Of a DNA stretch of 64,000 nucleotides, positions 1 to 35,545 are shown in pieces. Each line of letters opens with the position of its first letter. The stretch's first letter is position 1. The position numbers were made by a program, and so were the translations under genes. The stretch spans positions 33,433 through 97,432 of the forward strand of contig DATLFH010000088.1 in the NCBI GenBank assembly GCA_035524965.1, written 5' to 3'. The notes beneath the pieces are model-generated. The model was not told the origin of the DNA. It worked only from the letters and a program-made list of their open reading frames with translations, and did no database searches. This DNA comes from Gemmatimonadota bacterium (lineage in GTDB: Bacteria > Gemmatimonadota > Gemmatimonadetes > JACCXV01 > JAHWKZ01).

Positions 1-2
1 CG

Positions 3-116
3 GGATCTCGGAGCGGGTCCGGCGGCGATACCGGGGAGGAGGAAAAGACCGCGGCGGAGCACACGATCTCGGCGGGGCCTCACGATCGGGAGGGAAGACG
101 CGATGACGGAGAGTAA
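3..116 (+). CDS. 3' end of a CDS entering from the left edge (partial, product unknown)
   Basis: Frame 3 is open from base 3 to TAA at 114-116 and overlaps the next start by 14 nt, matching the tight coupling seen across the window. Too short to assign. Confidence 0.4.
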   Translation, partial: GSRSGSGGDTGEEEKTAAEHTISAGPHDREGRRDDGE

Positions 117-576
117 GTTTCGCGAGCGCCGCTCGGCCTTCGTCGAGGAGGACGAGGAGGGGCAGGAGGAGACGGACGAGGCGCTGGCCGCCGAGCCTTC
201 GCCCGCTGAGCCTTCGTCCGCCGGGCCGCCCCCGGCCGCCGCGCCGCGGGCCGGACCCACGGAAACGGGCCCGCTCGGAGCGCGGGAAGAGGACCGCGAC
301 GGGGGAGAGTTCGACCCGCTGGAAGGGATCGAGCTCCCGGAAGCATCCTTCCTCGAGATCGTCCAGTACTTCGCGATCCAGGCGATCCAGTTTCTCGGCG
401 ACATGCCCCTGAACGAGGAGGGAGAGCGACGCGTCATGCCTCGCGAGGCCAAGCACTTCATCGATCTGCTCGGCATCCTGGAGGATCGGACGCGCGGGAA
501 CCTGACCGCCGAGGAAGCGCGCTATCTCGACGGGATTCTCACCGATCTCCGGCTCCGATATTTGCGGATCGGCTGA
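103..576 (+). CDS. DUF1844 domain protein with acidic/Pro-rich N-terminus
   Basis: C-terminal AIQFLGDMP...AKHFIDLLGILEDRTRGNLTAEEARYLDGILTDLRLRY is the DUF1844 pattern. Confidence 0.8.
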   Translation: MTESKFRERRSAFVEEDEEGQEETDEALAAEPSPAEPSSAGPPPAAAPRAGPTETGPLGAREEDRDGGEFDPLEGIELPEASFLEIVQYFAIQAIQFLGDMPLNEEGERRVMPREAKHFIDLLGILEDRTRGNLTAEEARYLDGILTDLRLRYLRIG

Positions 577-972
577 ATGAATGCCGCGGTCCTCGAGACG
601 CGAGCCAGGAGCGCCAGGGAGCAGGCGTACGCCCCCTACTCGGGGTACCGGGTGGGAGCGGCGCTGGAGAGCGAAGACGGCCGGGTGTTCGACGGCTGCA
701 ACGTCGAGAACGCGGCCTATTCGGTGACGTGCTGCGCCGAGCGGGTCGCGCTGTTCGCCGCGGTGGCGGCCGGGGCGCGGCGTTTCCGCCGGCTGGTCGT
801 GTGCGCCGGCGGCCCGGCGCCCTATCCGTGCGGCACGTGCCGGCAGGCGCTGGCCGAGTTCGAGCCCGGACTGCCGATCACCGTGCTGGGGGATGATGGC
901 CACCGGCGCGAGTACACGCTCCGGGAGCTCCTGCCGGAACCCTTCACGATGGAGCCGGGGACAACCTCATGA
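577..972 (+). CDS. cdd: Cytidine deaminase (homotetrameric type)
   Basis: [19 protein letters not shown] and PCGTCRQ zinc motifs. Confidence 0.95.
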
Positions 973-1253
973 AGATGGGTCGCGTGGTGGGTAGCGTCGT
1001 GGCGACGCGGAAGGACGAGAAGCTGACGGGACTCAAGCTCCTCGTCGTCCGCAACCTGGACCTGGAGCTGGGGCCGGAGGGTGGCTACGTGGTCGCGGCC
1101 GACGCGGTCGGTGCGGGGGCCGGCGAGGTCGTGCTCTACGCGACCGGCTCCTCCGCCCGGCAGACGGCGATGACCGACAACCGCCCGGTCGATGCCGTCA
1201 TCATGGCGATCGTGGACGAGTACGACGTCGGTGGCGCGCTGACCCGAACGTGA
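969..1253 (+). CDS. eutN: Bacterial microcompartment vertex (pentamer, BMC-P) protein, EutN/CcmL family
   Basis: [37 protein letters not shown] and [11 protein letters not shown] are the EutN/CcmL motifs; ATGA overlap with cdd. Confidence 0.93.
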
Positions 1254-2488
1254 GAGCCTTCCGCATCGCCGCGCTCCCGCTCCTCTTGGTCAGCTTTATC
1301 GGCTGCACCGATGACAGCCGGAGCCCGGTGGGGGTCGATCTCCTGCCGGGCGGCATCCTCGAGGGGGGGCTCCAGGTGATCACGCTGACCACGCTCGACC
1401 GGGCGGAGGACTTCGAGGTGTTTCCCGCCGGCCGCGGGACGGCCGATCGCCTCGTGACGGCGCGCTCGTGGCCGGAGGAGCCGGGGATCGAGAGCCGCGC
1501 GCTCGTCCGGTTCTCACTGAGCTCCCTGGACACGCTGCCCGAAGGGGCCGAGATCGTCGGCGCCGGCATCCGGCTCGTCTTCGTGCCGGTAGATCAGCCG
1601 ATCACCTTCCATCTCCACGTCATCACGGACTTCTGGAGCGAGGAGGCGGCGACGTGGGAGCGGCGCGACTTCGGGGAGCCGTGGACGACTCCCGGCGGCG
1701 ATTTCGAAGCCGCGCCCGTGGCCACGTTCACGATCCAGCCGACGGCGCCCGACACCGCGCGCGCCGATTCGGTCGCCTTCGCGGATTCGGTCCGGGTCTC
1801 GCTCCCGGCATCCCTGGTCGAGGCGTGGCGGTCGGAGACGACGCTCAACGCGGGGCTGATCCTGATCCAGGAGACGCCCGGGGAGGCGGTCGCCTTTCCT
1901 TCGGCCGCCGGGCTCAACCCGCTCGGGCCGCGGCTCGATGTCGATGTCCTGCTCGAGGACCCCGGCAGCTTGGCCTTCGTCCAGCGGATCCAGGCCGAGG
2001 AGGATACGTTCATCGTCGACGATCCGGGGAGTCTCCCGCCCGGCGGCCTCGCGGTCAGCGCGGGCGATCCCTTGCGCCGAACGTTCCTCGTCCATTCGCT
2101 CGAGGGGGTGCCGCCCGGGGCGACGGTCGTCGAGGCCCAACTGATCGTCTCCCCGGACGGGGTCCGCATTCCCGGCGACTCCCTGTTTCTGTCCCTGAAT
2201 CAGGTGCTGGGGGAGTTCCGGGAAGAGAATACGATCCTCGGCACGACGCTGGGAGTCGTCAGCCTCGCGGCCGGCGAGGCCCCCGACTCGCTCGTCTTCC
2301 AATCGGGCGCGCTGACCAGCCGGGTTCGTCAATGGCTGCGCGATCCGGAGAGCAACGAGGGCGTGATCCTCAGCGTTCAGGACGAGGATACGGCCTTCGG
2401 CGAGGTGCGGCTTTTCGGGCCCGACGCCGCGATCCTTCTTCGGCCACGGATACGCCTCGTTTTGTTTCCGCCTCCGCTCCCATCGTGA
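1250..2488 (+). CDS. Lipoprotein with DNRLRE/CBM96-like beta-sandwich repeats
   Basis: Signal peptide ending FIG-C; SRALVRF...WSEEAATW...PWTTPGGDF resembles DNRLRE-type domains, and a second similar unit follows. Confidence 0.6.
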
Positions 2489-3735
2489 GCCCCTTCGTGG
2501 GTGCCAGCCCGGCGGCTGGGGCGAGCCGGTTCTTTCGCCGAGGGGTTGTGGCGCTGGCGCTGGCGACCGTTCAACCCGCCGCGCCCGCCCTCGCCCAGGA
2601 GAGCGTCTTCAACCTGCCGGGGTTCGGCCTGCCGGCCCCCGGGGAGAGCGTCCGCTCCAGCGCGCTGGGCGGGGCCGGAACCGTACTCTCGGGCGAGGTC
2701 TTCTCGCTCGACAGCCCGGCGCCGCTCGGCCGATTCGAGCGCGCCGGCTTCTACCTCTCGCTCCTGGGCCAGCAGACCGAGGTCGAGGATCGCTCCGCCT
2801 CGGGCACGTTCGAGGACGTCGTGTTCCCGATGGCTCAGGTGGTGGTTCCCGCGGGGGATCTCACCCTGGCGGTCGGCTACTATCAGTTCGTCGACTTCGA
2901 CGCGGCGCTCGAGTCGAGCGTGGTCTTCGAGGCGGAGACCCTGCCGGCCACCCTCGATTCGGAGGGCGGGATCAGCGTCCTTTCTCCCGCGCTGGCGTAC
3001 GCCCTGGATGGTCGCACCTCAGCGGGCGTGTCCTTCGACATCTATCTCGGGTCGCGAGAGGAGATTCGTGCCATCGAGACCCTGGACGCGCTCGGAAGGT
3101 CGCTGTCGACCGCCGACACCCTCGTCCGGGACTTCGCCGGGGCGGGGCTGACCCTGGGAATCGAGCGGGGCCTCGGCGAAGGTCTACGCGTGGGGGCGTC
3201 GTACCGGCTCCGTCCAACGATCACGAGCGAGGTCACCGATGCCTCGGGCGAGGGACTGATCGGGCGCGAGAGCCAGCTCGACCTTCCCGACGAGCTCATG
3301 GTGGCGGCGGCGGCGCGCCTTTCATCGCAGGTCGAGGTCGGGGCTCTCGTCCGAACCTCCGGTTGGGGTGGATTCGAGAGCGACGCCCGCACCGCCGGCG
3401 ACTTCACGAACGCGGTCGAGATCGGCGGCGGCGTGGAGTACGCGCCCCAGTCCAGGACCGCGCTCCTGCTGGGCCCGCAGGCGCCGCTGCGCGCAGGCTT
3501 TCGGTGGCGCCGGCTTCCGGTCGAGGTCGACGGCGAGCCGGTCAGGGAGTGGACCACGAGCCTGGGGCACGGCCGCTCGTTCGGTGGACGCAGCCGGATC
3601 GACCTCGTGCTCGAGTACGGTGAGCGCGGATCGGTCGAAGCGAACGGTCTCTCGGAGCGGTTCCTGCGCTTCGGGGTCGGGGTGGCCGCGTTCGAGCAGT
3701 GGCGGCGCCAGGGAGGCGGAGGCGGGGCGAATTGA
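2485..3735 (+). CDS. Outer-membrane beta-barrel protein, FadL/OmpP1-like
   Basis: True start is GTG 2485, overlapping the upstream TGA (the ORF-track start at 1468 is a shadow extension). Signal peptide ending ALA-Q, SSALGGAG plug motif, alternating beta-strands. Confidence 0.65.
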   Translation: MSPFVGASPAAGASRFFRRGVVALALATVQPAAPALAQESVFNLPGFGLPAPGESVRSSALGGAGTVLSGEVFSLDSPAPLGRFERAGFYLSLLGQQTEVEDRSASGTFEDVVFPMAQVVVPAGDLTLAVGYYQFVDFDAALESSVVFEAETLPATLDSEGGISVLSPALAYALDGRTSAGVSFDIYLGSREEIRAIETLDALGRSLSTADTLVRDFAGAGLTLGIERGLGEGLRVGASYRLRPTITSEVTDASGEGLIGRESQLDLPDELMVAAAARLSSQVEVGALVRTSGWGGFESDARTAGDFTNAVEIGGGVEYAPQSRTALLLGPQAPLRAGFRWRRLPVEVDGEPVREWTTSLGHGRSFGGRSRIDLVLEYGERGSVEANGLSERFLRFGVGVAAFEQWRRQGGGGGAN

Positions 3736-3748
3736 GACGGCGCCCAAA

Positions 3749-3778
3749 TTGACATCCGGCCGGCGCGGTGCCTAACTT
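3749..3778 (+). promoter_or_regulatory. Putative sigma70 promoter for secDF
   Basis: TTGACA (3749-54), 18-bp spacer, TAACTT (3773-78), upstream of the secD ATG at 3815. Confidence 0.6.
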
Positions 3779-3814
3779 GCCGCCCGCTCACTCCTCTTTT
3801 CACAAGCGAAACTC

Positions 3815-5554
3815 ATGCGAAAAAAGCTGCAGATCCGCTGGGCGATCCTCGCCGTCTCCGCCCTGACCGCGCTCTGGTATCTGTGGCCGTCGATCCGCCT
3901 CTACTCGATGTCGCCTGCCGAGCGGGAGGCGATGGAGCAGGCCGATCCGTCGGCCTGGGAGAGCCTCAAGGGCCGCGCGATCAAGCTGGGGCTGGACCTC
4001 CAGGGAGGGATGCACCTCGTGCTCGAGCTCGACGAGTCCGAGCGCGCCTTCACCGATGAGGAGCGGCGGGATGCGGTCGATCGGGCGCTCGAGATCATCC
4101 GCAACCGCGTTGATCAGTTCGGAGTCTCCGAGCCGCTGATCCAGAAGGTCGGAGACGAGCGGATCATCATCGAGCTGCCCGGCATCCAGGACGAGGAGCG
4201 CGCCAAGGAGCTCGTCCAGCAGACCGCCTACCTCGAGTTCCAGATCGTCGTCGAAGGCGATCGGGCCGCGGACGAGATCCGCGCGCTCGATGCGGCCCTG
4301 GCCGGCCGACCCCTGGCCGCGGATACCACGGGGACGGCGGACACTACAGCGGGCGCTGACACCACGGCGGTTGCTGACACCACGGCGGCCGCGGGAACCG
4401 ACACCGTTGCCGCCGACACCGGCGCGCAGACGCTGGGGGAATTCCTGGGGGAGACCCCGCCGGCCGACGCCTCTGCGGCCGCCTTCCCGGGGGCCGAAGA
4501 CCGCCCGTTCTCGTCGCTTCTCCAGGTCGATCCGACCGGCCAGGCGCAGTTCGTCGTGCCCGAAGGCGAGGTGGCGCGCGTGCGCGCGCTGCTGGCCGAT
4601 TCGGCGGCCGCGCGCGAGATCGGTGACGAGATCGAGTGGCTGTGGGGGAGCGGGGCCGACACCTACGCTGACGGCCGATCGTACCGGGCGCTCTGGCTGG
4701 TCGAGAAGGAACCGGTCCTGACCGGTGAGGCGATCGGCACCGCGGCCGCCGGATTCGATCCCCAGTTGACGAATCAGCCGATCGTCTCGCTCGAGATGAC
4801 GCCCGAGGGCTCGACGACGTTCGCCGAGGTGACCGGCCAGCACGTGAACGAGCGCATGGCGATCGTCCTGGATCAGATCGTTCGCATGGCGCCCAACATC
4901 CGACAGCGGATCGTGGGGGGGAACGCCCAGATCGAGGGCTTCGATTCGGTGGAGGAGGCGCGCGACATCGCGATCGTCCTGCGCGCCGGGGCGCTGCCGG
5001 CGCCGCTCGACATCATCGAGGAGCGCACCGTGGGCCCGTCCCTCGGAGCGGATTCGATCCAGCAGGCCCGGCGCGCAGGGCTCATCGCGGTCCTCGTGGT
5101 CGCCGCCTTCATGATCTTCTACTATCGCGCTTCGGGCGCGATCGCGGTCGTCGCCCTGACGCTCAACATGGCGCTCATCATGGCGGCGCTGGCCGGCTTT
5201 GGGGCGACGCTCACCCTGCCGGGGATCGCCGGCCTGATCCTGACCGTGGGCATGGCGGTCGACGCCAACGTGCTCGTGTTCGAGCGAGTGCGAGAGGAGC
5301 TGGCGGTCGGCAAGTCCGTGCGTGCCGCGGTGGAGGCGGGCTACGACCGTGCCTTCGTGACGATCCTCGACGCCCAGATCACGACCCTGATCGCGGCCGC
5401 GGTCCTCTTCCAGTACGGGACCGGACCCATCAAGGGGTTCGCGATCGTCCTCACGATCGGGATCGTGAGCTCGATTTTCACCGCCGTCTTCGTCACGCGC
5501 ACGATCTTCGACACCTGGACGCGGCGCACGAGCGCTCGGAGGCTCAGCATCTGA
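3815..5554 (+). CDS. secD: Protein translocase subunit SecD
   Basis: LGLDLQGG, IIRNRVDQFGVSEP, IIIELPG, LRAGALPAP, GPSLG and AVDANVLVFER motifs. Confidence 0.98.
   Translation: MRKKLQIRWAILAVSALTALWYLWPSIRLYSMSPAEREAMEQADPSAWESLKGRAIKLGLDLQGGMHLVLELDESERAFTDEERRDAVDRALEIIRNRVDQFGVSEPLIQKVGDERIIIELPGIQDEERAKELVQQTAYLEFQIVVEGDRAADEIRALDAALAGRPLAADTTGTADTTAGADTTAVADTTAAAGTDTVAADTGAQTLGEFLGETPPADASAAAFPGAEDRPFSSLLQVDPTGQAQFVVPEGEVARVRALLADSAAAREIGDEIEWLWGSGADTYADGRSYRALWLVEKEPVLTGEAIGTAAAGFDPQLTNQPIVSLEMTPEGSTTFAEVTGQHVNERMAIVLDQIVRMAPNIRQRIVGGNAQIEGFDSVEEARDIAIVLRAGALPAPLDIIEERTVGPSLGADSIQQARRAGLIAVLVVAAFMIFYYRASGAIAVVALTLNMALIMAALAGFGATLTLPGIAGLILTVGMAVDANVLVFERVREELAVGKSVRAAVEAGYDRAFVTILDAQITTLIAAAVLFQYGTGPIKGFAIVLTIGIVSSIFTAVFVTRTIFDTWTRRTSARRLSI
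4319..4423 (+). repeat. Degenerate 18-bp coding repeat in secD encoding (A/T)DT(T/V/G) units
   Basis: Asp codons at 4322, 4340, 4358, 4376 (18-bp period), then 4400 and 4415: ADTTGTADTTAGADTTAVADTTAAAGTDTVAADTG. Confidence 0.85.
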
Positions 5555-5555
5555 G

Positions 5556-6518
5556 ATGATCTGGCTCTTCCGGGACGCGAACTATCCCTTCCTCAAGTAT
5601 CGCAAGTACGGCTACTGGATCTCGGGGCTGCTGACGCTGGCCACGGGGGTCTCGATCGCGCTCCACGGCGGCCTCCGGTACTCGATCGATTTTACCGGCG
5701 GCACGCTCATCCAGCTCGAGTTCGACGAGCCGGTCGAGACCCAGTCGCTGCGCCGGGCGGTGGGCCGGATACCGGGCCTGGAATCAAGCGAGGTCCAGCG
5801 CTTCGGCGATCCGTCGGACGTCGTCATCCGGGCTCAGGTCCCGGAAGGGGCGGAAGAAGACTTCGGCGACCGGATCGAATCCCATCTGAGACAATCGCCC
5901 GAGCTGGCCGGCCGCTCGTTCGACGTCGTGCGCACCGAAGCGGTAGGTCCCAAGATCGGCGAGGAGCTCAAGCGCGACGCCCTGCTGGCGATCCTCTACT
6001 CGCTCGGGCTGATCCTCATCTACGTCGCCTTCCGCTTCGATCTGAAGTTCGGGGTCGCGGCGATCGTCGCCACGGCGCACGACGTCATCCTCTCGCTGGG
6101 GATCTTCTCGCTTGTGAACAAGGAGATCTCGCTGGCCGTCGTCGCGGCGTTTCTCACGATCATCGGTTATTCGCTGAATGATACGATCGTCGTATTCGAC
6201 CGGATCCGGGAGGACCTGAAGCTGATGCGCCGGGAGCCCTACGAGGAGATCGTGAACAGGGCGCTCAACCAGACCCTTTCGCGCACCGTGCTGACCGCAG
6301 GCACGACCCTCGTCGTGCTCGCGTTCCTCTACTTCCTGGGCGGCGAGACGATCCACGATTTCGCGTTCGCGCTGATCATCGGGATCCTCATCGGGACCTA
6401 CTCGTCGATCTACATCGGGGCCCCGCTGGTCGTGGAATGGAAGACGCGGATCGAGGACCCCCGGGCGGAGATGGCCCCCAGGAAGAAAAGGAAGACGCGC
6501 GCCGCAACGCGCGGCTGA
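5556..6518 (+). CDS. secF: Protein translocase subunit SecF
   Basis: SIDFTGG, VGPKIG, GYSLNDTIVVFDRIRE, TLSRT and GTYSSIYI motifs. Confidence 0.98.
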   Translation: MIWLFRDANYPFLKYRKYGYWISGLLTLATGVSIALHGGLRYSIDFTGGTLIQLEFDEPVETQSLRRAVGRIPGLESSEVQRFGDPSDVVIRAQVPEGAEEDFGDRIESHLRQSPELAGRSFDVVRTEAVGPKIGEELKRDALLAILYSLGLILIYVAFRFDLKFGVAAIVATAHDVILSLGIFSLVNKEISLAVVAAFLTIIGYSLNDTIVVFDRIREDLKLMRREPYEEIVNRALNQTLSRTVLTAGTTLVVLAFLYFLGGETIHDFAFALIIGILIGTYSSIYIGAPLVVEWKTRIEDPRAEMAPRKKRKTRAATRG

Positions 6519-6546
6519 TTCACCGCACTGGACCCGGAGTTGAAAG

Positions 6547-7329
6547 ATGGGCGCGGAAAGCGTTCCGGAGAATGTGGGCCGCGAGATCGTCGCGGCCGGC
6601 CGGCGGCTCTACGCCCGAGGCCTGATCGGGGGCTCGGAGGGGAACATCAGCGTCCGGCTGGATGGGGCGCGGGTCATGGCGACCCCGGGCGGCGCGTGCA
6701 AGGGGTTCCTCGAGCCGGACCTGCTCGTCGTGACGGACCTGGAAGGGCGTCGGCTCGCGGGCCGGGAGAACCCCTCGAGCGAGCTCAAGATGCATCTCCG
6801 GATCTACCATCTCCGGGATGACGTCCGCGCGGTCGTCCACGCCCACCCTCCGGCCGCGACCGGCTTCGCGATCGCCGGCCGGCCGCTCGACGAGTGCGTC
6901 GTCCCGGAGGTGATCGCCACCCTGGGCCAGGTCCCGATCGTCCCGTACGGGACGCCGTCGACAGAGGATCTGCCCGAGCGGCTCGCCCCCTACGTGCAGG
7001 CCCACGACGCTCTGCTTCTGGCGAACCATGGCGCGGTCACGTTCGCGCCCACGCTGGCGCGGGCGCTCAATGCCATGGAGTCGATCGAGCAGGCGGCGCG
7101 CTCGATGCTGGTCGCCCATCTGCTGGGACGGATCAACCGGCTCACCCGGGAGGACGTGGACAGCCTTCTTGCGCTCGATGCCTACGGCATGCCGGTGCGA
7201 AACCCCGGCTGCGCGTGGACGGCCGAGGCCGGCCCGGGTGGCGCTGGCGGCCCGGGTGGCGCCGACGATGACCTGCGCCGGCGGATCGCCGGGATCGTCC
7301 GGGAGACGCTGAACGGGACGAAAGGATGA
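6547..7329 (+). CDS. Class II (Zn) aldolase/adducin family protein with C-terminal linker plus amphipathic helix
   Basis: EGNISVR, TPGG, PSSELKMH, VHAHP and NHG metal/phosphate motifs; tail NPGC...GPGGAGGPGG-ADDDLRRRIAGIVRETL. Confidence 0.9.
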   Translation: MGAESVPENVGREIVAAGRRLYARGLIGGSEGNISVRLDGARVMATPGGACKGFLEPDLLVVTDLEGRRLAGRENPSSELKMHLRIYHLRDDVRAVVHAHPPAATGFAIAGRPLDECVVPEVIATLGQVPIVPYGTPSTEDLPERLAPYVQAHDALLLANHGAVTFAPTLARALNAMESIEQAARSMLVAHLLGRINRLTREDVDSLLALDAYGMPVRNPGCAWTAEAGPGGAGGPGGADDDLRRRIAGIVRETLNGTKG

Positions 7330-8219
7330 GGAGCGGGTCGGTCGCGCTGGTGACCGACTCGACGGCCGAGATCCACGCGCTCGATCCCGGCTCCGAGTGG
7401 CACGTCGTCCCGCTCGAGCTCGAGATCGACGGCCGGCGGCTCAAGGAGGGCCCCGAGCTCTCGGCGGACGAGTTTCACCGCCTCTTTCAGCGCGTGAACA
7501 CGGTTCCCGCCACGCTGCCGCCGTCGATCGACGCCTTCGCCTCCGCCTACGCCCCCCTCCTCGCTCGCCACGATGCGGTGCTTTCGATCCACCTCTCGGG
7601 CGGCTTGAGCGACACGGTCCTCCATGCGCGCGAGGCAGCCCGCCGTCTGGGCGCGGCCGACCTCGTCACGATCGTCGACTCGCGCCTGGCGGGGCTCGCG
7701 CTGGGCCTCCTTTGCCGCGAGGCCGAGACCCGGCTCGCGGAGGGAGCGACCGTCGGCGAGACAAAGGCCGATCTGGATCGGATCATCGCCGCCTGCCGGG
7801 TCTACTTCTCGGTGTTCACGCTCGATTTCCTGTATCTGAGCGGCCGGCTCGCACGTTCGAGTCGGCCCGACCAGGCCGCGGCAGGCGCCTCCCACGCGGC
7901 CGATGACCGCCCGATCCTGACGCTTGAGAACGGCCGGCTGTCGCTGGTCGAGCGGGTCATCGGGGAGACGACGCGCGTCCAACGGATCGCGGAGCTGCTG
8001 GAGGGGGAGTATGGGGTCGGCGAGCCGCTGATCGCTGGCTCGGTCCACGCGGGCCGGCGCGGCGACGAGGCGGCGGCCCGGCTCGAGCAGGCGCTCACCG
8101 CCGCGCTGCATCCCGGGACCGCCTGGTACCGAAGCCCGCTGGGTCCCGTGCTCTGCGCCCACACCGGCTTCGATGTCTGCGGGATCGCGGTGTATCCGCG
8201 CCGGCTCTCGAAACTATAG
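7326..8219 (+). CDS. DegV/FakB family lipid-binding protein (divergent)
   Basis: VTDST, VVPLEL, SIHLS, IVDS, TLDFL..SGRL, RPIL and AHTG are DegV-like motifs. Confidence 0.85.
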   Translation: MRSGSVALVTDSTAEIHALDPGSEWHVVPLELEIDGRRLKEGPELSADEFHRLFQRVNTVPATLPPSIDAFASAYAPLLARHDAVLSIHLSGGLSDTVLHAREAARRLGAADLVTIVDSRLAGLALGLLCREAETRLAEGATVGETKADLDRIIAACRVYFSVFTLDFLYLSGRLARSSRPDQAAAGASHAADDRPILTLENGRLSLVERVIGETTRVQRIAELLEGEYGVGEPLIAGSVHAGRRGDEAAARLEQALTAALHPGTAWYRSPLGPVLCAHTGFDVCGIAVYPRRLSKL

Positions 8220-8222
8220 GCG

Positions 8223-8483
8223 CTAGGCGGCTTCGAGCCGGGCCACGTGGGCGCCCAGGCGGGACTTCTGGCGCGCCGCGGCGTTCGCATGGATCACGCC
8301 CTTGCTGGCGAGCCGGTCGAGCAGGCTCTCGGCCCCGCGCAGGGCCGATCGTGCACCATCCGGCGACTCCGCCTGGCGCACCTTCTTGATCGCTGTCCGG
8401 AGGCGGGATCGATCGCGGCGGTTCCTCTCCCGCTGCTTGAGGTTGGTGCGGGCGCGCTTCTCGGCGGATTTGGCTTTCGGCAC
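8223..8483 (-). CDS. rpsT: 30S ribosomal protein S20
   Basis: GTG start at 8483 with AAGAGAGG RBS; KSAEKRARTNLKQRERNR...LDRLASKGVIHANAAARQKSRL. Confidence 0.97.
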   Translation of the reverse strand: MPKAKSAEKRARTNLKQRERNRRDRSRLRTAIKKVRQAESPDGARSALRGAESLLDRLASKGVIHANAAARQKSRLGAHVARLEAA

Positions 8484-21253: not shown

Positions 21254-22361
21254 ATGGCGGATGAACGCGAGACCCGGCGGCGGCTGGCGAACCTAGAGGA
21301 GCGGCTCGAGCTCCTCGGGAGCTATCTTTGACCTGCCCACCCGGCGCGATCGCATCGCCGCCCTCCAGAGCGCCTCGGCCGCACCCGGTTTCTGGGACGA
21401 CCAGGAGCGTGCACGGAGCGCGCTCGCCGAGCTGAAACAGCACGAAAACTGGGTTATGGCCCACGACGCGCTCGGGCGCGACCTCGGGGAGGCGCGGGAG
21501 ATGCTCGATCTTCTGGCCGGCGAGGAGGACGCCGCGCTGTGGGACGAGCTCGAGACCTTGGGGGGCCATCTCGAGGAGCGCCTCGAGCGTTTCGAGTTCC
21601 GCGGTATGCTCCAGGATCCGGACGACTACCGGGGCGCGATCGTAACCGTGCACTCCGGCGCCGGCGGTACGGAGAGCCAGGACTGGGCGCTCATGCTCCT
21701 CCGGATGTACAGCCGCTGGATGGAGGCCGCCGGCCACGCCTATCGCATCGTCGACCTGCAAGAAGGTGAGGAGGCCGGGATCACGCGCGCCACGATCGAG
21801 GTGGAGGGTGAGTACGCGTACGGATACATGAAGGCCGAGAAGGGAGTCCACCGACTGGTCCGCATCAGCCCGTTCGACGCCAATGCCCGACGCCACACCT
21901 CGTTTGCCGCGGTATTCGTCTATCCCGACATCGCCGACGAGATCACGATCGATCTCCAGGACCGGGACCTGCGCGTGGATACCTATCGGGCGAGCGGGGC
22001 GGGCGGGCAACACGTGAACAAGACGTCCTCGGCGGTACGGATCACCCATCTTCCGACCGGGATCGTGGTCCAGAGTCAGTCCGAGCGCAGCCAGCACCGG
22101 AACCGGGAGACCGCCATGCGCCTCCTCCGCGCCCGCCTCTATCAGTACCTGAAGGCCGAACGGGAGAAGTCCCGCGAGGAACTCGAGGCGGAGAAGAAGG
22201 AGATCGCGTTCGGCAGTCAGATCCGCTCCTACGTGCTGCATCCGTACACGCTGGTCAAAGATCACCGGACGGGCCACGAGACCTCGGACGTGGAAGCGGT
22301 TCTGGCCGGTGAGATCACGCCGTTCATGGAAGCGTACCTGAAGCAACCCGCCGGAGCGTAG
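21254..22361 (+). CDS. prfB: Peptide chain release factor 2 (+1 programmed frameshift)
   Basis: ATG 21254; frame 0 ends TAT CTT TGA C (21323-32); +1 frame continues DLPTRR...FWDD; SPF and GGQ motifs present. Confidence 0.98.
21317..21332 (+). other. prfB programmed +1 frameshift cassette
   Basis: Internal SD-like GGGAG, then CTT TGA C slippery/stop site. Confidence 0.95.
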
Positions 22362-25959: not shown

Positions 25960-26502
25960 ATGCTGTGTGCGGACTGCCAGAAGAATAAAGCTATCGTCCA
26001 TTTCACCCAGATCGTCAACGACGAGACGGAAACGTTCCACCTGTGCCAGAGCTGCGCGCAGGCGCGCGGTCTGAAGACGACGCCGAGCACGTCACAGGTG
26101 CCGCTTTCCGACTTCCTGTACGAGTTGGGCGCCCCGATCTTCACGAAGGCGACGAGCGCCAACCTGTCATGCCCGCGGTGCGGCTGTACGTTCCGCCAGT
26201 TTCGGAAGACGGGACGACTGGGCTGCGCGGAGTGCTACACGACCTTCGAGCAGGAGATGAGCGCGCTTCTCAGGAAGATCCATGGTTCGAACGAGCACGT
26301 GGGGATCCTGGAATCCGAAGGCATCGAGCCCCAGGACGATCGTCAGGCGCAGATGGCCGACCTCCGGCGCCGCCTCCGGCAAGCGGTCGATAGCGAGGAG
26401 TACGAACGGGCGGCCGAGCTGCGCGACCAGATCGTCGAAATCGAGGAGGAGCGTCGTGCTGTCGGGCAGGCGGCTCCCCGGAGCAGCCGTGGAGAGACGT
26501 GA
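25960..26502 (+). CDS. mcsA: McsA (four CXXC motifs plus UVR domain)
   Basis: CADC, CQSC, CPRC, CAEC; C-terminal EEYERAAELRDQI. Confidence 0.95.
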   Translation: MLCADCQKNKAIVHFTQIVNDETETFHLCQSCAQARGLKTTPSTSQVPLSDFLYELGAPIFTKATSANLSCPRCGCTFRQFRKTGRLGCAECYTTFEQEMSALLRKIHGSNEHVGILESEGIEPQDDRQAQMADLRRRLRQAVDSEEYERAAELRDQIVEIEEERRAVGQAAPRSSRGET

Positions 26503-27566
26503 TGACGTTGCCCGAAGACGACCTGCTGAAGCCGGTCGAGGGCGGACTGGCGTGGATCAGCGGCGACGGCCCGCACGCCGACGTCATCCTGTCCACGCGC
26601 ATCCGGCTGGCCCGCAACCTGGAGCGGTTCGCGTTCCGGGAGACGATCACCGGCGACCAGCAGGACCTGGTGACCGAGGAGCTGCTCGAATCCCTTCAGG
26701 CGGCCGATCTCGAACAGGGAACGCAGTTCCTGAAACTCGGAGTTCTGACCGATATCGATCTCACTCTGCTCCTGGAGCGACATCTGGTCAGCCGTGAAAT
26801 GATCAAGTTCAAGGAAGCAAGCGCGCTGCTGATCGGCGACGGCGGACGGGTCGCGCTGCTGATCAACGAAGAGGACCATCTGCGGATCCAGTCGCTGACA
26901 CCGGGCTTGCAGCTCGAGGAATCCTGGCAGATCGCGAGCCGGACCGAGCAGGCGCTCCGGCAGCGGTGCCAGTTCGCCTATCATCACCGGTTCGGGTTCT
27001 TGACGAGCTGCCCGACGAACACGGGTACCGGCCTGCGGGCCTCGGTTCTGATCCACCTGCCGGGCCTGGTGCTGACTCGTGAGATCCACAAGGTCCTCCA
27101 GGGCCTCGCCCAGATCGGGCTGACTTTCCGCGGCCTCTACGGCGAGGGCTCGGATGTGATCGGGAACTACTTCCAGCTGTCGAATCAGACCACGCTTGGG
27201 AAGAGTGAGGACGAGCTGGTGGGCCACCTGGACCGGATCACCCGTCAGGTGATCGAGTATGAGGAAAACGCACGGCAGGTCCTGGTCAGGGACGCCCTGG
27301 ACGAGATCGAGGACAAGGTCTGGCGCGCGTACGGACTGCTGCGCAGCGCGCGCTCGATGTCTTTCGACGAGATGATGAACCTGCTGTCGGCAGTGCGCCT
27401 CGGGGTCAGCATGAAACTGCTCCCCGACATAGGGGTATCGAAGTTGAATCGTCTATTGCTGTGGACCCAGGTGGCGCATCTCGAAAAGCGGGCGCAACGC
27501 TCGCTCGACGCGCGGGAGCGCGAGATTGAGCGGGCTTCCCTGGTGCGGGAGATCCTTGAAGGGTAG
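26499..27566 (+). CDS. mcsB: Protein-arginine kinase McsB
   Basis: STRIRLARN, LLERHLVS, INEEDHLR, CPTNTGTGLRAS and QLSNQTTLG motifs. Confidence 0.96.
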   Translation: MMTLPEDDLLKPVEGGLAWISGDGPHADVILSTRIRLARNLERFAFRETITGDQQDLVTEELLESLQAADLEQGTQFLKLGVLTDIDLTLLLERHLVSREMIKFKEASALLIGDGGRVALLINEEDHLRIQSLTPGLQLEESWQIASRTEQALRQRCQFAYHHRFGFLTSCPTNTGTGLRASVLIHLPGLVLTREIHKVLQGLAQIGLTFRGLYGEGSDVIGNYFQLSNQTTLGKSEDELVGHLDRITRQVIEYEENARQVLVRDALDEIEDKVWRAYGLLRSARSMSFDEMMNLLSAVRLGVSMKLLPDIGVSKLNRLLLWTQVAHLEKRAQRSLDAREREIERASLVREILEG

Positions 27567-27583
27567 GTCGCTGAGCGACCTAC
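27563..27583. promoter_or_regulatory. Perfect 9-3-9 inverted repeat between mcsB and clpC
   Basis: GTAGGTCGC-TGA-GCGACCTAC with no U-tract. Confidence 0.5.
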
Positions 27584-27611
27584 GAATCCTGCAGAAGAGA
27601 CGTAGAGGTCT

Positions 27612-30104
27612 ATGAATAGCAACTTTACGGATCGAGTTCGAAAAGTGCTGTCGATGGCCCGCGAGGAAGCGACCCGGCTGCATCACGACTACGTCGGAAC
27701 CGAGCATATCCTGCTCGGCCTGATCCGCGAAGGCGAGGGTGTAGCCGCCGCGATCCTCACCAACTTGAACGTGGATTTGGACGAGCTGCGGCAACGAATC
27801 GAGGAGCGGGTGGATCAGGGAAGGAGCGACATGGCCGCCGACGAGGTTCCCTATACGACCCGCGCCAAGAAGGTGCTGGAGTTTTCTGTCGCCGAGGCGC
27901 GCAGCCTTAAGCATTCCTATGTTGGAACCGAGCATCTAATGCTCGGATTGCTGCGCGAGGAGAAGGGGGTCGCCGCACAGGTGCTCGACGAGACCGGCGT
28001 AACGATCGATGTCGCGCGCAACGAAACGATTCGACTGCTCGGGGGGGAGCTGAGCTCTATGGAAAGCGGAGGCCAGACATCCAAGTCGAGCGACAAGAAA
28101 TCGAAGACGCCGGCGCTTGATCATTTCTGCCGGGATCTGACCGATCTCGCCCGCGAAGGCGAGCTGGATCCGACGATCGGTCGAGGGAAGGAGATCGAGC
28201 GCGTCATCGAGGTGCTATCCCGGCGCAAGAAGAACAACCCGGTGCTGATCGGCGAGCCGGGTGTGGGGAAGACCGCCATCGTCGAGGGTCTGGCGCAGCG
28301 TATCACGAGTGGCGAGATCGTCCACAGTCTGCGCGATCACCGGGTGCTGTCGCTGGATATGGCAGCCGTCATCGCGGGGACCAAGTACCGCGGTCAGTTC
28401 GAGGAGCGCCTCAAGGCCGTGATCAACGAGATCAAGCAATCGCGGAATGTGATCCTCTTCATCGACGAGCTCCACACTCTGGTCGGGGCCGGTGCGGCCG
28501 AGGGCGCCATAGACGCCTCGAACATGCTGAAGCCGGCGCTGGCCCGCGGCGAGCTGCAGTGCGTCGGCGCCTCGACGCTCAACGAATACCGCAAGTACAT
28601 CGAGAAGGACGGTGCGCTCGAGCGGCGGTTCCAGCCGGTGGTCGTGGATCCCCCGACGATCGAGGAGACATTCGAGATCCTGAAGGGGCTCCGATCCCGG
28701 TACGCCGAGCACCACAACGTGGAGATCCCGGACGGCGCCATCGAAATCGCGGCGCGGCTCTCGGAGCGCTACATCACCGATCGCTTTCTACCCGACAAGG
28801 CGATCGACGTGATCGACGAAGCCTGCGCGCGGGTCCATCTGGCGACCCAGGTTCCGCCTCCCGAGCTGCTGGCGCTCGAGGAAGAGGTTCAGGAGATCAT
28901 CGGACGCAAGGATCACGCGATCAAGGCCCAGGACTATGAAACGGCGGCCAAGCTGCGCGATACCGAACGCGAGCTGAAATCCACGATCAAGCGGAAGAAG
29001 GTCGAGTGGGAGCGCGGCAACCATGCCGACCGGCCGACCCTCTCACTGGAGGACGTGGCCTTCATCGTGAGTCGCTGGACAGGTGTACCGGTCGTGCGGC
29101 TGCGCGAGGAGGAAACGGAACGGCTGCTGCACATGGAAGACGAGATCCACAAGCACATCGTCGGTCAGGACGCCGCGATCCATGCGATTTCCAAGGCGAT
29201 CCGCCGCACCCGCGCCGGCCTCAAGGATCCTCGGCGGCCGATCGGATCGTTCATCTTCTCGGGTCCCACCGGAGTCGGGAAGACCGAGCTCGCGCGCGCC
29301 CTGGCGCGGTTCCTTTTCGCCGATCCCAACGCGCTCATCCGGATCGATATGTCCGAGTACATGGAGAAGTTCACGGTGAGCCGGCTGCTGGGCGCCCCGC
29401 CGGGCTACGTGGGTTATGAGGATTCGGGCTATCTCACCAAGGAGGTTCGGCGCAAGCCCTACTCGGTGGTGCTGCTCGACGAGATCGAAAAGGCCCATCC
29501 GGATGTATTCAACATCCTTCTCCAGATCCTCGACGAGGGGCACATCACCGACAATTATGGTCGTAAGATCGACTTCAAGAACACGGTCGTGATCATGACC
29601 TCGAACATCGGCGCGCGCCGCATCATGGGCTCCCGCTCGCTGGGATTCCAGCGCCCGAGCGAGACCGCCCGGATCGACCAGATCGAGGAGGCGGTGAAGG
29701 ACGAGATCAACAAGACCTTCAACCCCGAGTTCCTGAACCGTCTCGACGAGACGATCGTCTTCCATCCACTTACCGAAGATCACATCGTCCAGGTCGTGGA
29801 CATCCTGTTCAAGGAGATCCTCGACCGCCTCGATGACCGTGACATCACCCTCGTCCTCTCGGAGGGGGCCAAACGGTACCTGGCCCGTAAGGGCTTCGAC
29901 GAGAAGTTCGGGGCCCGGCCGCTGAAGCGTGCGATGCAACGCTACCTGCAGGATCCCTTCTCCGAGGATCTGCTGAAAGGCCGGTTCGTTCCGGGTGACG
30001 AGGTCGTGGTCGAGGTGAGCGAGGACGAGGACCGCCTCGTCTTCACGTCCCGGGGCTCGCGCGCGCCACGGGAGGAGGAATCGGTTCAGGAAGAGGTGGG
30101 CTGA
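27612..30104 (+). CDS. clpC: ATP-dependent Clp protease ATP-binding subunit ClpC
   Basis: Two Clp-N repeats (GTEH), Walker A motifs GEPGVGKT and [11 protein letters not shown] middle domain, LGF ClpP-docking loop. Confidence 0.97.
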
Positions 30105-33093: not shown

Positions 33094-34169
33094 TGAACCA
33101 TCCGCAGGGGATCCCTGATCCCGGAGACCGAGGAGGCGGCGGGGAATTGGCACGAGCGAGTGTACCGCTGGGCGAGCTCGCCGCAGCGATCGGGGCCCGG
33201 CTGGAGGGGAATCCCCGTTTGGAGATCCGCGGAGTCTCGACGCTCGAGGGTGCAGGCCCGACGGATCTCTCCTTCCTTGCCAACGCCCGCTACGAGGAGG
33301 CTGCCCGCCTGACCAATGCGGGGGCGATCGTGGTCGGATCGGACTACCGCGCCAACGGCCAGAACGTCCTGCGGAGCGACAACCCTTACCTGGCGTTCGC
33401 TCAGGCGATCGCCCTCCTCTGGCCCCCTCCCCCGGTCGAGCCAGGCGTTGCGCCCACCGCAGTCGTCGATGCGACGACCCGGGTTCCGGGCGACGCGTCC
33501 ATCGGGCACCACGCGGTCATCGGCGCGAACGTCGATCTCGGGCGGGGTGTCGTGGTCGGAGCGGGAACGGTGATCGAGGAGAGCATCGTGATCGGGGAAG
33601 GGTCGCGACTCTTTCCGCGGGTCACGCTCCTGCACGGAACCCGTCTCGGGAAGCGTTGCGTGGTTCAGAGTGGCAGCGTGCTAGGCGCCGACGGCTTCGG
33701 ATACGCCACGGATGGCGCCGGCCGCCATCACAAGGTCCCCCAGCGCGGCGGACTCGTGCTGGGCGATGACGTCGAGATCGGCGCCGGCGTCACGATCGAC
33801 CGCGGATCGATGGAGGATACTACGATCGGGGATGGTGCCAAAATTGACAACCTGGTCCATATCGGGCACAATGTAAAGATAGGTAAAAACGCGATCATCG
33901 TTGCCCAGGTGGGCGTCGCGGGCAGCACGAAAGTCGGCGACTTCGTCGTCGTGGGTGGACAGGCGGGAATCGTGGGCCACGTGAGTATCGGGGATCGCGC
34001 GCGGATCGGGGGGCAGGCGGGAGTCATCGGTGATGTCCCCGCCGGGGCGGAGTATTCGGGCTATCCCGCCCGCTCCCATCGCGAACAGATGCGGGCCCAC
34101 GTGCTCTTCAGCCGTCTCCCGGAGATCTTCGCGCGTCTCAAGGCGATCGAGCAGAGGATTCGCGCATGA
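33093..34169 (+). CDS. lpxD: UDP-3-O-(3-hydroxyacyl)glucosamine N-acyltransferase
   Basis: [26 protein letters not shown] and [11 protein letters not shown] motifs. Confidence 0.97.
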
Positions 34170-35545
34170 AGAACGATCGCCAGCTGACGATCGCGCGGCC
34201 GGTCACCTACAGCGGCGTTGGCCTCCATACCGGCGACCAGAGCCATCTGACGTTCCTTCCCGCCGAGGCCAACACCGGCCTGCGCTTCGTCCGCGTAGAC
34301 CTCGATGGAGATCCCGAGATCATCGTCGATCCGGAGCATGTCATCGGGGTCGATCGGGGGACCTCGATCGGTCTCGACGGAAGCAAGGTTCATACGATCG
34401 AGCACGTGCTGGCGGCTGTTGCGGCGCGCGGAATCGACAATTTGCGGATTGAGCTGGACGCGAGCGAGCCGCCGGTCGGTGACGGTTCCAGCTTGCCTTT
34501 CTGGCGCGCGCTGCAGGAGGCGGGGCTCAAGGAGCTGGACGCTCCACGACGCCGATATCGGGTGGAGGAACCGATCTTCTACGCGGACGGAGATGTGGAG
34601 ATCACCCTTTTGCCATCCGATCGCCTGCAGGTTTCCTTCACGATCGATTTCGACCATCCGCTGGTAGATCACCAGTTCGAATCCTTCGAGATCACGCCCG
34701 AGATCTTCGAACGGGAGATCGCACCGGCTCGGACTTTCGGCTTCCTTCACGAGATCGAGCAGCTGAAAGCGGCGGGGCTGATCCGCGGAGGGAACCTGAG
34801 GAATGCGATTGTGATCGGCGAGGATAAGATTCTCAACGAAGAGCGGCTCCGCTTTCCGACGGAACTCGTCCGTCACAAGATCCTCGACCTGCTCGGAGAT
34901 CTGAAAGTGCTCAATGTCGATATCGAGGCTCACATCGTCGCCCATCGGTCGGGGCATCGCGCCAACTTCGCTCTCGTCCAGCTGCTGAAGCGGCGGATCG
35001 ATGGACAGAGCGGCAACGGTGCGGGCAGGCTCGGGGAGACGCGCCGGGGGCCGTCCAGAACGCGCCGGGGGGCGTCCAGGGCTCGCCGGGAGAGGAAGGT
35101 CGAGCGCCCCACGATACTGGACGTCAGCCGCATCCTGGAAATCCTGCCCCATCGCTATCCGTTCCTGCTGGTGGATCGTGTCGTGAGGATCGAGGAGGGC
35201 CGACGGGTGGTGGGGATCAAGAACGTGACGATCAGCGAGCCGTTCTTCCAGGGTCATTTCCCCGGTCATCCGGTCATGCCCGGCGTTTTGATCGTAGAGG
35301 CGATGGGGCAGGTCGGCGGGTTGCTGTTGATGAGCCTGGTCGATGATCCAACCGGAAAGGTGGTCTACTTCACCGGGTTGGACAGAGTCCGGTTCCGCCA
35401 GCCGGTGCTGCCCGGCGATCAGCTCATCTGCGAAGTCGAACTGGTCCGGCGCCGGGGAACGTTCTGCAAGATGCGCGGGGTTGCGCGCGTGGACGGTGCG
35501 GTGGTTGCCGAGGCCGACCTCATGGCCTCGTTGGTTCCAAAATGA
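34166..35545 (+). CDS. lpxC-fabZ: Bifunctional LpxC deacetylase / FabZ dehydratase fusion
   Basis: [23 protein letters not shown] and HKILDLLGD motifs (LpxC); [11 protein letters not shown] and [16 protein letters not shown] motifs (FabZ). Confidence 0.97.
35039..35090 (+). repeat. 21-bp tandem duplication in the LpxC-FabZ linker
   Basis: ACGCGCCGGGGGCCGTCCAGA / ACGCGCCGGGGGGCGTCCAGG / GCTCGCCGGG encode [17 protein letters not shown]. Confidence 0.75.

Follow-up and report, generated by a model that had tools for sequence, protein, structure and literature searches.

A microcompartment vertex gene overlapping a cytidine deaminase gene in Gemmatimonadota

Fragmented microcompartments and the vertex gene of the window

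In the bacterial microcompartments (BMCs) classified as FRAG, the shell genes occupy up to six genomic places, include a triplet of genes for the vertex pentamer (BMC-P), and mostly lie far from the enzyme genes; Gemmatimonadetes are among the hosts (Sutter et al. 2021, Nat Commun 12:3809, PMC8217296). The FRAG8 type is represented by seven loci, mostly from Gemmatimonadetes, with the enzyme DeoC in almost all of them (PMC8217296, Supplementary Data 2). Three of its loci contain an aldehyde dehydrogenase (AldDH) with a C-terminal peptide, its BMC-P triplet consists of green, grey and orange members, its shell hexamer (BMC-H) is of the standard kind, and BMC-H, DeoC and the BMC-P triplet are found in scattered loci (PMC8217296). 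The authors of this catalogue called the FRAG microcompartments enigmatic and gave no substrate, regulation or reason for the scattering (PMC8217296). Here we describe a 64-kb stretch of DNA (hereafter the window) from a soil Gemmatimonadota genome with 67% G+C, in which a lone BMC-P gene overlaps the end of the gene for cytidine deaminase (cdd).

The BMC-P gene (969-1253, + strand) encodes a 94-amino-acid protein of the EutN/CcmL family, which matches PF03319 with 107.1 bits (gathering score 25) over profile positions 1-83 of 83. The best solved structure for this protein is 5v74, the Haliangium shell pentamer (E = 1.3e-30, residues 1-90), and 13 further BMC-P structures are among its matches. 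Its start at M1 is supported by alignment to the N terminus of 5v74 (MKMGRVVG versus MVLGKVVG). As the initial annotation had stated, the gene is situated between cdd and a lipoprotein gene, an assignment with which the open reading frames (ORFs), the family score and the structural match all agree. The upstream neighbour (577-972, +) codes for a homotetramer-type cytidine deaminase of 131 amino acids with a PF00383 domain, a TIGR01354 equivalog score of 133.6 bits (cutoff 113.65) and the zinc/catalytic motifs CAE and PCGTCRQ, without a terminal extension. Its TGA codon at 970-972 overlaps the BMC-P ATG at 969-971 to form an ATGA junction (969-972, +). At the other end, the BMC-P TGA at 1251-1253 overlaps the GTG start of the lipoprotein gene at 1250-1252 (GTGA).

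Searches of the 64 kb by tblastn, using four BMC-H queries (best E = 0.89) and the BMC-P itself, revealed no BMC-H and no second BMC-P, and tblastn of the window found neither DeoC nor DeoB. Scans of about 50 window ORFs against Pfam and NCBIfam gave no match to PF00936, PF00171, PF06130, PF01515, PF01791 or PF02502. These results bear out the earlier observation that the 64 kb contain no BMC hexamer, aldehyde dehydrogenase or phosphotransacylase (PTAC). The scanned ORFs are ordinary housekeeping genes, including those for aminoacyl-tRNA synthetases, prfB, scpAB, bamA, lpxD, lpxC-fabZ, lpxA, lpxK, clpC, gdh, an egtD-egtB fusion and an opuA-type transporter. The isolation of the BMC-P gene is qualified by one gene of the same window, which codes for a class II aldolase (6547-7329) with a tail resembling an encapsulation peptide.

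The window BMC-P agrees with the description of FRAG8 in phylum, length (94-95 amino acids), satellite status and tree neighbourhood, a match made by description and not by sequence to the catalogued protein A0A1G0L335. That protein (A2083_03170) from Gemmatimonadetes GWC2_71_9 is a 95-amino-acid satellite BMC-P of the 'paleGreen' type, which is located near HO-type sequences in the published BMC-P tree and has 'P_paleGreen_mixed-spu' as its best hidden Markov model (PMC8217296). Homologues of the window gene are named Gemmatimonadota, and neither the 64 kb nor the 10-kb surroundings of the gene in 44 relatives contain another shell gene. Furthermore, DeoC, which is the signature enzyme of FRAG8 and is of the sugar-phosphate-utilising (SPU) type, fits the deoB/cdd context of the Gemmatimonadota loci. 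Only the green-type member of the FRAG8 triplet is seen in the window, and a peptide-bearing PF00596 aldolase is not part of the FRAG8 description. The proposal in the initial annotation that the organism has a dispersed metabolosome embedded among housekeeping genes fits this evidence, but such an arrangement is not new, as FRAG and FRAG8 have already been catalogued (PMC8217296).

Other described types share individual features with the window. The HO microcompartment of Haliangium ochraceum (PDB 5V74, 6MZX) provides the closest solved structure, alignable over residues 1-90, and in HO type I, satellite loci likewise hold BMC-P genes and a PF00596 aldolase. However, the orthologous BMC-P of HO adjoins BMC-H and AldDH in the main locus, whereas that of the window stands alone behind cdd. 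The SPU microcompartments have deoxyribose phosphate from nucleic-acid breakdown as their proposed substrate (PMC8217296). Orthologues of the window BMC-P at 57-70% identity occur in SPU loci such as L078, whereas the window itself has no PF01791, PF02502, AldDH or BMC-H gene and no compact locus. The MUF2 type is found mainly in Gemmatimonadetes (PMC8217296), and the window likewise has a PF00596 aldolase with a C-terminal candidate encapsulation peptide composed of a variable linker and a conserved helix. However, the MUF2 aldolase accompanies BMC-H, and this type has AldDH and PTAC in a main locus and uses a purple, grey and orange BMC-P triplet, whereas the window aldolase lies in a rtcB/secF-aldolase-DegV housekeeping string without BMC-H, and neither AldDH nor PTAC is present in the window. 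Finally, the classical genes of nucleoside catabolism form deoC-deoB-cdd and deoB-cdd strings in unrelated bacteria, and the deoB-cdd order is kept in one of the two Gemmatimonadota clades described below (clade B), but a vertex gene is joined by overlap to the cdd end only in Gemmatimonadota.

Conservation and origin of the cdd/BMC-P junction

A scan seeded with the BMC-P, in which one genome per species was retained, yielded 80 loci, 44 of which come from Gemmatimonadota metagenome-assembled genomes (MAGs). The cdd gene is directly upstream of BMC-P in all 44. A junction set was assembled from 45 loci that hold both genes, including the locus of the window's organism (L001) and two long-read ENA contigs, and in every one of these the cdd stop and the BMC-P start overlap by exactly 4 nucleotides (44 ATGA, 1 GTGA). 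Because the 80 loci had been chosen by their BMC-P, JGI metagenome contigs were also scanned with cdd alone as a reverse test. BMC-P is found immediately 3' of cdd in 16 of the 16 contigs that reach past cdd and carry a cdd at least 66% identical to that of the window; three other cdd-anchored contigs stop inside cdd. The overlap is therefore invariant across the relatives examined that carry BMC-P. Conservation of the adjacency in relatives had been proposed as a check on the initial annotation, and the arrangement is not unique to this genome.

The Gemmatimonadota loci split into two clades that differ in the gene preceding cdd. Clade A comprises 26 species plus the window and has the order alr-DUF1844-cdd-BMC-P-lipoprotein-barrel-secDF, with BMC-Ps that are 77-89% identical to that of the window. 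Clade B comprises 16-17 species, mostly labelled Gemmatimonadales, and has the order alr-deoB-cdd-BMC-P, with BMC-Ps that are 68-76% identical. The gene between alr and cdd in clade B encodes a protein of 387 amino acids that is recognized as a phosphopentomutase (equivalog NF003766, 463 bits with a cutoff of 256; TIGR01696 deoB, 402 bits). A deoB homologue with 57-93% identity to the copy in locus L034 is found directly upstream of cdd in 16 of 16 clade-B loci. The L034 operon has overlapping alr/deoB and cdd/BMC-P junctions and, as far as the sequence indicates, an overlapping deoB/cdd junction as well. In clade A, the DUF1844 gene holds the operon position that deoB has in clade B. The older form of the operon was probably alr-deoB-cdd-BMC-P, in which a nucleoside-salvage pair is followed by the vertex gene.

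One JGI contig with 69% G+C (Ga0326597_10486262, positions 1-1348; locus L130) carries linked deoB, cdd and lipoprotein genes without BMC-P. Its deoB is 65-68% and its cdd 55-61% identical to those of clade B, and its lipoprotein gene, which has a 1-nucleotide overlap with the cdd stop codon, encodes a product 35-40% identical to the clade-B protein that follows BMC-P. This contig represents an empty site for the vertex gene, and because deoB, cdd and the lipoprotein gene are joined there without it, BMC-P is a discrete and dispensable insert in the operon. Loss of BMC-P in the L130 lineage is the simpler reading, as clades A and B carry the gene at the same junction.

Sequence constraint on BMC-P is strong. 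Relative to the window, the median identities in clades A and B, respectively, are 83% and 74% for BMC-P, 71% and 56% for the cdd product, and 63% and 38% for that of alr. The corresponding clade-A values are 68% for secD and 46% for the lipoprotein, neither of which was detected in clade B. Thus, no other gene of the operon is as strongly conserved as BMC-P. Moreover, of the 24 columns that reach at least 90% conservation in 25 orthologues located beside BMC-H, including the GAGxGE, GSSARQT and PVDA/IVD stretches, every one reaches this level in 43 Gemmatimonadota sequences too. Clade-specific fixed residues are confined to positions 2, 3 and 93, and public data contain more than 100 clusters (90% identity) that are at least 82% identical to the window BMC-P. 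Nothing in these alignments suggests a new function for the Gemmatimonadota protein. A reading of the gene as a pseudogene or remnant was considered and rejected in view of this strong conservation.

To examine the ancestry of the gene, 125 BMC-Ps from the 80 loci were placed in a maximum-likelihood tree. Every BMC-P linked to cdd falls into a single clade (SH-aLRT 88), which is nested among 'green-type' BMC-Ps from Myxococcota, Chloroflexota, Planctomycetota, Acidobacteriota, Eisenbacteria, Fibrobacterota and Actinomycetota. By its sequence, the window BMC-P is accordingly placed in the 'green' SPU/HO-like clade. Most relatives outside the phylum (57-70% identity) are encoded directly downstream of an HO-like BMC-H, and a DeoC homologue is present in 13 of these BMC-H-adjacent loci. 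One of them (L078) has the order RpiB-DeoC-BMC-H-BMC-P-AldDH-BMC-T-BMC-P-BMC-P, which is a textbook SPU locus, and acidobacterial relatives occur in ACI-type loci with a class II aldolase, BMC-H and three BMC-Ps. Because the single cdd-linked clade nests among BMC-Ps of BMC-H-adjacent loci, we conclude that the Gemmatimonadota vertex gene has SPU/HO ancestry and reached its present site by a single relocation, since which it has been inherited vertically.

A BMC-P of the same green-type group is found directly after deoB in two Calditrichaceae loci (L058 and L082), in a deoB-BMC-P-BMC-P arrangement. These loci (positions 8804-10857 of L058, from a Calditrichaceae MAG, and the equivalent in L082) consist of deoB, two BMC-P genes, an ORF for 104 amino acids without a family match and a gene for an rpoD-like sigma factor, and no BMC-H is present within 10 kb of them. 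These loci represent a second phylum with a deoB-linked, scattered set of vertex genes.

A class II aldolase with an encapsulation-type tail

The aldolase gene (6547-7329, +) encodes a protein of 260 amino acids, which matches PF00596 with 160 bits over residues 12-187. Its C terminus consists of a Gly/Pro linker (approximately 7222-7263) followed by an amphipathic helix, DDDLRRRIAGIVRETL (approximately 7264-7326). The same tail layout is seen in aldolases encoded beside BMC-H in ACI-type loci of Acidobacteriota and in loci of Planctomycetota and Aminicenantes. Among approximately 85 orthologue clusters from Gemmatimonadota, the linker is free to vary in length and sequence, whereas the helix, with the pattern LRxx(I/V)AxIVR(E/D)xL, is kept. 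Encapsulation peptides on PF00596 aldolases have been reported for ACI, MUF2, SPU5 and some HO loci (PMC8217296). The tail of the window aldolase bears the signature expected of such a peptide, and the enzyme is likely an encapsulated cargo of the same organelle as BMC-P. Because this putative targeting peptide is conserved, we infer that a shell exists in this lineage.

A related strain in a soil metagenome (X2) has an extra 18 nucleotides, GGCGGCCCGGGTGGCCCC, after position 7245, so that the linker is polymorphic in length while the helix is retained.

The aldolase gene has a conserved context of its own in relatives, with the order rtcB-aldolase-DegV-rpsT-M50-tRNA synthetase-scpAB. No BMC-H is located beside the aldolase in the window or in four distinct loci of relatives (L084-L089, some of which are duplicates). 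The possibility that the aldolase and BMC-P, which are 5.3 kb apart in the window, constitute a conserved mini-locus was considered and rejected; their proximity is a lineage-specific juxtaposition of two blocks.

Possible roles of the coupling and neighbouring features

We favour the explanation, with a probability of roughly 0.68, that BMC-P is a functional vertex pentamer and a satellite of a fragmented, FRAG8-like microcompartment of Gemmatimonadota, with a plausible link to deoxynucleoside breakdown. An ancestral member of the phylum would have moved a 'green' BMC-P gene from behind BMC-H to the end of an operon for nucleoside salvage and envelope functions (alr-deoB-cdd-...). At this site, BMC-P would be translated by ribosomes finishing cdd, through the 4-nucleotide stop/start overlap, and the coupling might supply the protein at a steady, low dose. 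A shell needs 60 copies of the vertex protein. The pentamers would then cap shells made from BMC-H encoded elsewhere in the genome, around a cargo that may include the peptide-bearing class II aldolase and, probably, DeoC and an aldehyde dehydrogenase also encoded elsewhere. Cdd, together with DeoB in clade B, might serve as a cytosolic feeder enzyme that channels deoxynucleosides toward deoxyribose 5-phosphate.

The initial annotation had taken the coupling to cdd as pointing to nucleoside catabolism. Three independent lines of gene context support this suggestion, namely the deoB-cdd-BMC-P order of clade B, the deoB-BMC-P-BMC-P order of the Calditrichaceae, and the RpiB-DeoC-BMC-H-BMC-P-AldDH order of loci outside the phylum, and together they render a deoxynucleoside link plausible. 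Conversely, the only cargo-like enzyme of the window is a class II aldolase and not DeoC.

Several observations weigh against the fragmented-microcompartment explanation. None of the 44 Gemmatimonadota loci has a BMC-H, a second BMC-P, DeoC or AldDH within 10 kb of BMC-P. When an HO-like BMC-H was used as a query, none of the best 120 homologues was named Gemmatimonadota; these matches are 84-100% identical, and those with names are Chloroflexota or Anaerolineae. In addition, the nearness of the aldolase to BMC-P is specific to this lineage, as the aldolase lies elsewhere in the rtcB-aldolase-DegV block. The connection between cdd and the organelle would be only indirect because Cdd carries no encapsulation peptide. 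The remaining operon genes (alr, lipoprotein, outer-membrane barrel and secDF) serve envelope housekeeping, and for this reason the adjacency could be a frozen accident.

Such an accident is possible, at odds well short of even. The fragmented microcompartment would be real, whereas the attachment of BMC-P to cdd would be without functional meaning and the substrate would be of the aldolase type (fuculose- or rhamnulose-phosphate-like, as proposed for ACI, MUF2 and PVM) instead of nucleoside-derived deoxyribose. The PF00596 aldolase with its encapsulation-type peptide as the sole cargo-like enzyme seen, the predominance of envelope genes in the operon and the lack of a targeting peptide on Cdd would all be expected in this case. 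Likewise, clade A has DUF1844 in place of deoB with BMC-P unaffected, and deoB-cdd pairs are common in bacteria without BMC-P, for example in gut metagenome contigs. An accident is harder to reconcile with the DeoC/RpiB loci that hold orthologues of this BMC-P outside the phylum, with the second phylum that independently places this BMC-P clade right after deoB, and with the presence of DeoC in nearly all FRAG8 loci (PMC8217296). Nor does it readily explain why the junction stays invariant although alr identity has dropped to 33-41% over the same divergence. At the opposite extreme, the invariant (deoB-)cdd-BMC-P operon might be fully functional, such that the organelle catabolises deoxynucleosides, the output of vertex protein is stoichiometrically tied to cytosolic Cdd and DeoB, and Cdd might even bind the pentamer or a site close to it. 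We regard this stronger version as doubtful, although if true it would give FRAG microcompartments a substrate and would be a first case in which translational coupling to a pathway enzyme that acts outside the shell controls how much of a shell protein is made.

Two further explanations dispense with a shell altogether. A pentamer co-opted in genomes that have lost BMC-H, for instance to bind Cdd or to aid lipoprotein or outer-membrane biogenesis, would account for the absence of a hexamer gene within 10 kb in the 44 loci and across the 64-kb window, and for the coupling of BMC-P on both sides to genes unrelated to microcompartments. This role seems unlikely, however, given that all 24 family-conserved columns are retained with essentially no clade-specific substitutions outside the termini, and that the window aldolase keeps its encapsulation-type peptide under selection, which is sensible only with a shell. 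The catalogue also reports BMC-H in FRAG8 genomes of Gemmatimonadetes (PMC8217296), and the empty site in L130 indicates that BMC-P is dispensable for the operon. Were the shell genes nevertheless absent, the gene would provide the first well-supported example of a vertex protein that functions in the absence of a shell. Least probable by far is that BMC-P is a decaying leftover from a microcompartment locus since lost, retained only by its position between genes that overlap it. BMC-P is indeed the only shell gene in the window, and one relative (L130) has lost it or never had it. Even so, the gene is intact in 44 of 44 species-level genomes, it is better conserved than any other gene of the operon, and it has the more than 100 clusters of close homologues noted above; these conservation data effectively refute decay.

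If BMC-P is a satellite of a fragmented microcompartment, as we favour, at least one scattered shell gene is placed non-randomly, being held to cdd, and in the sister clade also near deoB, in every examined member of two deep Gemmatimonadota clades. The cdd/deoB linkage, taken together with the DeoC-containing loci of BMC-P orthologues, points to a substrate that can be tested for this organelle, whose hosts are abundant, uncultured soil bacteria: deoxynucleosides would be converted to deoxyribose 5-phosphate and then to acetaldehyde. The overlap might likewise be a simple means of setting the dose of a protein of which a shell needs only 60 copies. In the published description of the FRAG types, cdd and deoB receive no mention; the word 'cytidine' is absent from the text searched and 'deaminase' is used only for an unrelated adenine deaminase family (PMC8217296). 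Literature searches linking cytidine deaminase to microcompartments and EutN found no reports, and those combining Gemmatimonadota with microcompartments found nothing relevant. The literature searched makes no mention of the invariant cdd overlap, the deoB-cdd-BMC-P form, the empty site or the peptide-bearing aldolase embedded in another housekeeping operon.

The first 6.5 kb of the window form one same-strand string of genes from DUF1844 to secF, in which several junctions overlap or abut. The DUF1844 gene (103-576, +; PF08899, 71 bits) is syntenic in 26 clade-A loci, and the ATG of cdd is directly 3' of its stop codon. The N-terminal half of the DUF1844 protein is acidic, rich in Pro and Ala, and of low complexity. 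Further upstream, a 7-kb Logan contig of the same organism contains mazG on the opposite strand and alr, which overlaps DUF1844. The lipoprotein gene (1250-2488, +), which is kept downstream of BMC-P in clade A, encodes 412 amino acids with a DNRLRE domain (NF033679, 52.9 bits). It is followed by a gene called for an outer-membrane beta-barrel protein (2548-3735, +) with weak Toluene_X or BamG-like similarity; relatives give a weak match to PF03349, and the clade-B homologue scores 54 bits with the BamG family, which is under the cutoff of that family. The secD (3815-5554, +) and secF (5556-6518, +) genes are assigned from Pfam and synteny, and secF marks the end of the conserved alr...secDF block. 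In-frame length differences of 6 and 3 nucleotides between the window and contigs from soil metagenomes X1 and X2 occur at 4615 (secD) and 6485-6488 (secF), and represent strain-level variation. A promoter and terminator scan of positions 1-8400 gave no sigma-70-type promoter, and its six terminator-like matches, compared with approximately 2.7 expected by chance, are uninformative at 67% GC. No RNA runs containing the window stretch turned up when evidence of co-transcription was sought. In X1, the source soil metagenome, the organism of the window is sequenced to a depth of approximately 37.5-41; BMC-H-like contigs have depths of 2.8-28 there, plus a single 118-nucleotide piece at 41.9, which is too weak a basis for assigning any of them to this organism.

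Elsewhere in the window, prfB (PCRF and RF-1 domains from 21456) has the canonical programmed +1 frameshift motif CTT TGA C at 21326-21332 with GGGAGC upstream, and, like its E. coli counterpart, it encodes its N-terminal part in a different frame. Positions 25960-30104 encode, in a row, a UVR-motif protein, an ATP:guanido phosphotransferase resembling the arginine kinase McsB, and ClpC. This corresponds to a McsA/McsB/ClpC-type module, which is better known from Firmicutes. A single ORF for 788 amino acids on the minus strand (52002-54368) combines an EgtD-type histidine methyltransferase (PF10017) with DinB_2 and FGE-sulfatase domains resembling EgtB, and is an apparent EgtD-EgtB fusion for ergothioneine synthesis. 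Similarly, LpxC and a FabA/FabZ-like dehydratase domain are joined in one ORF for 459 amino acids (34166-35545), which is located inside a cluster of lpxD, lpxC-fabZ and lpxA.

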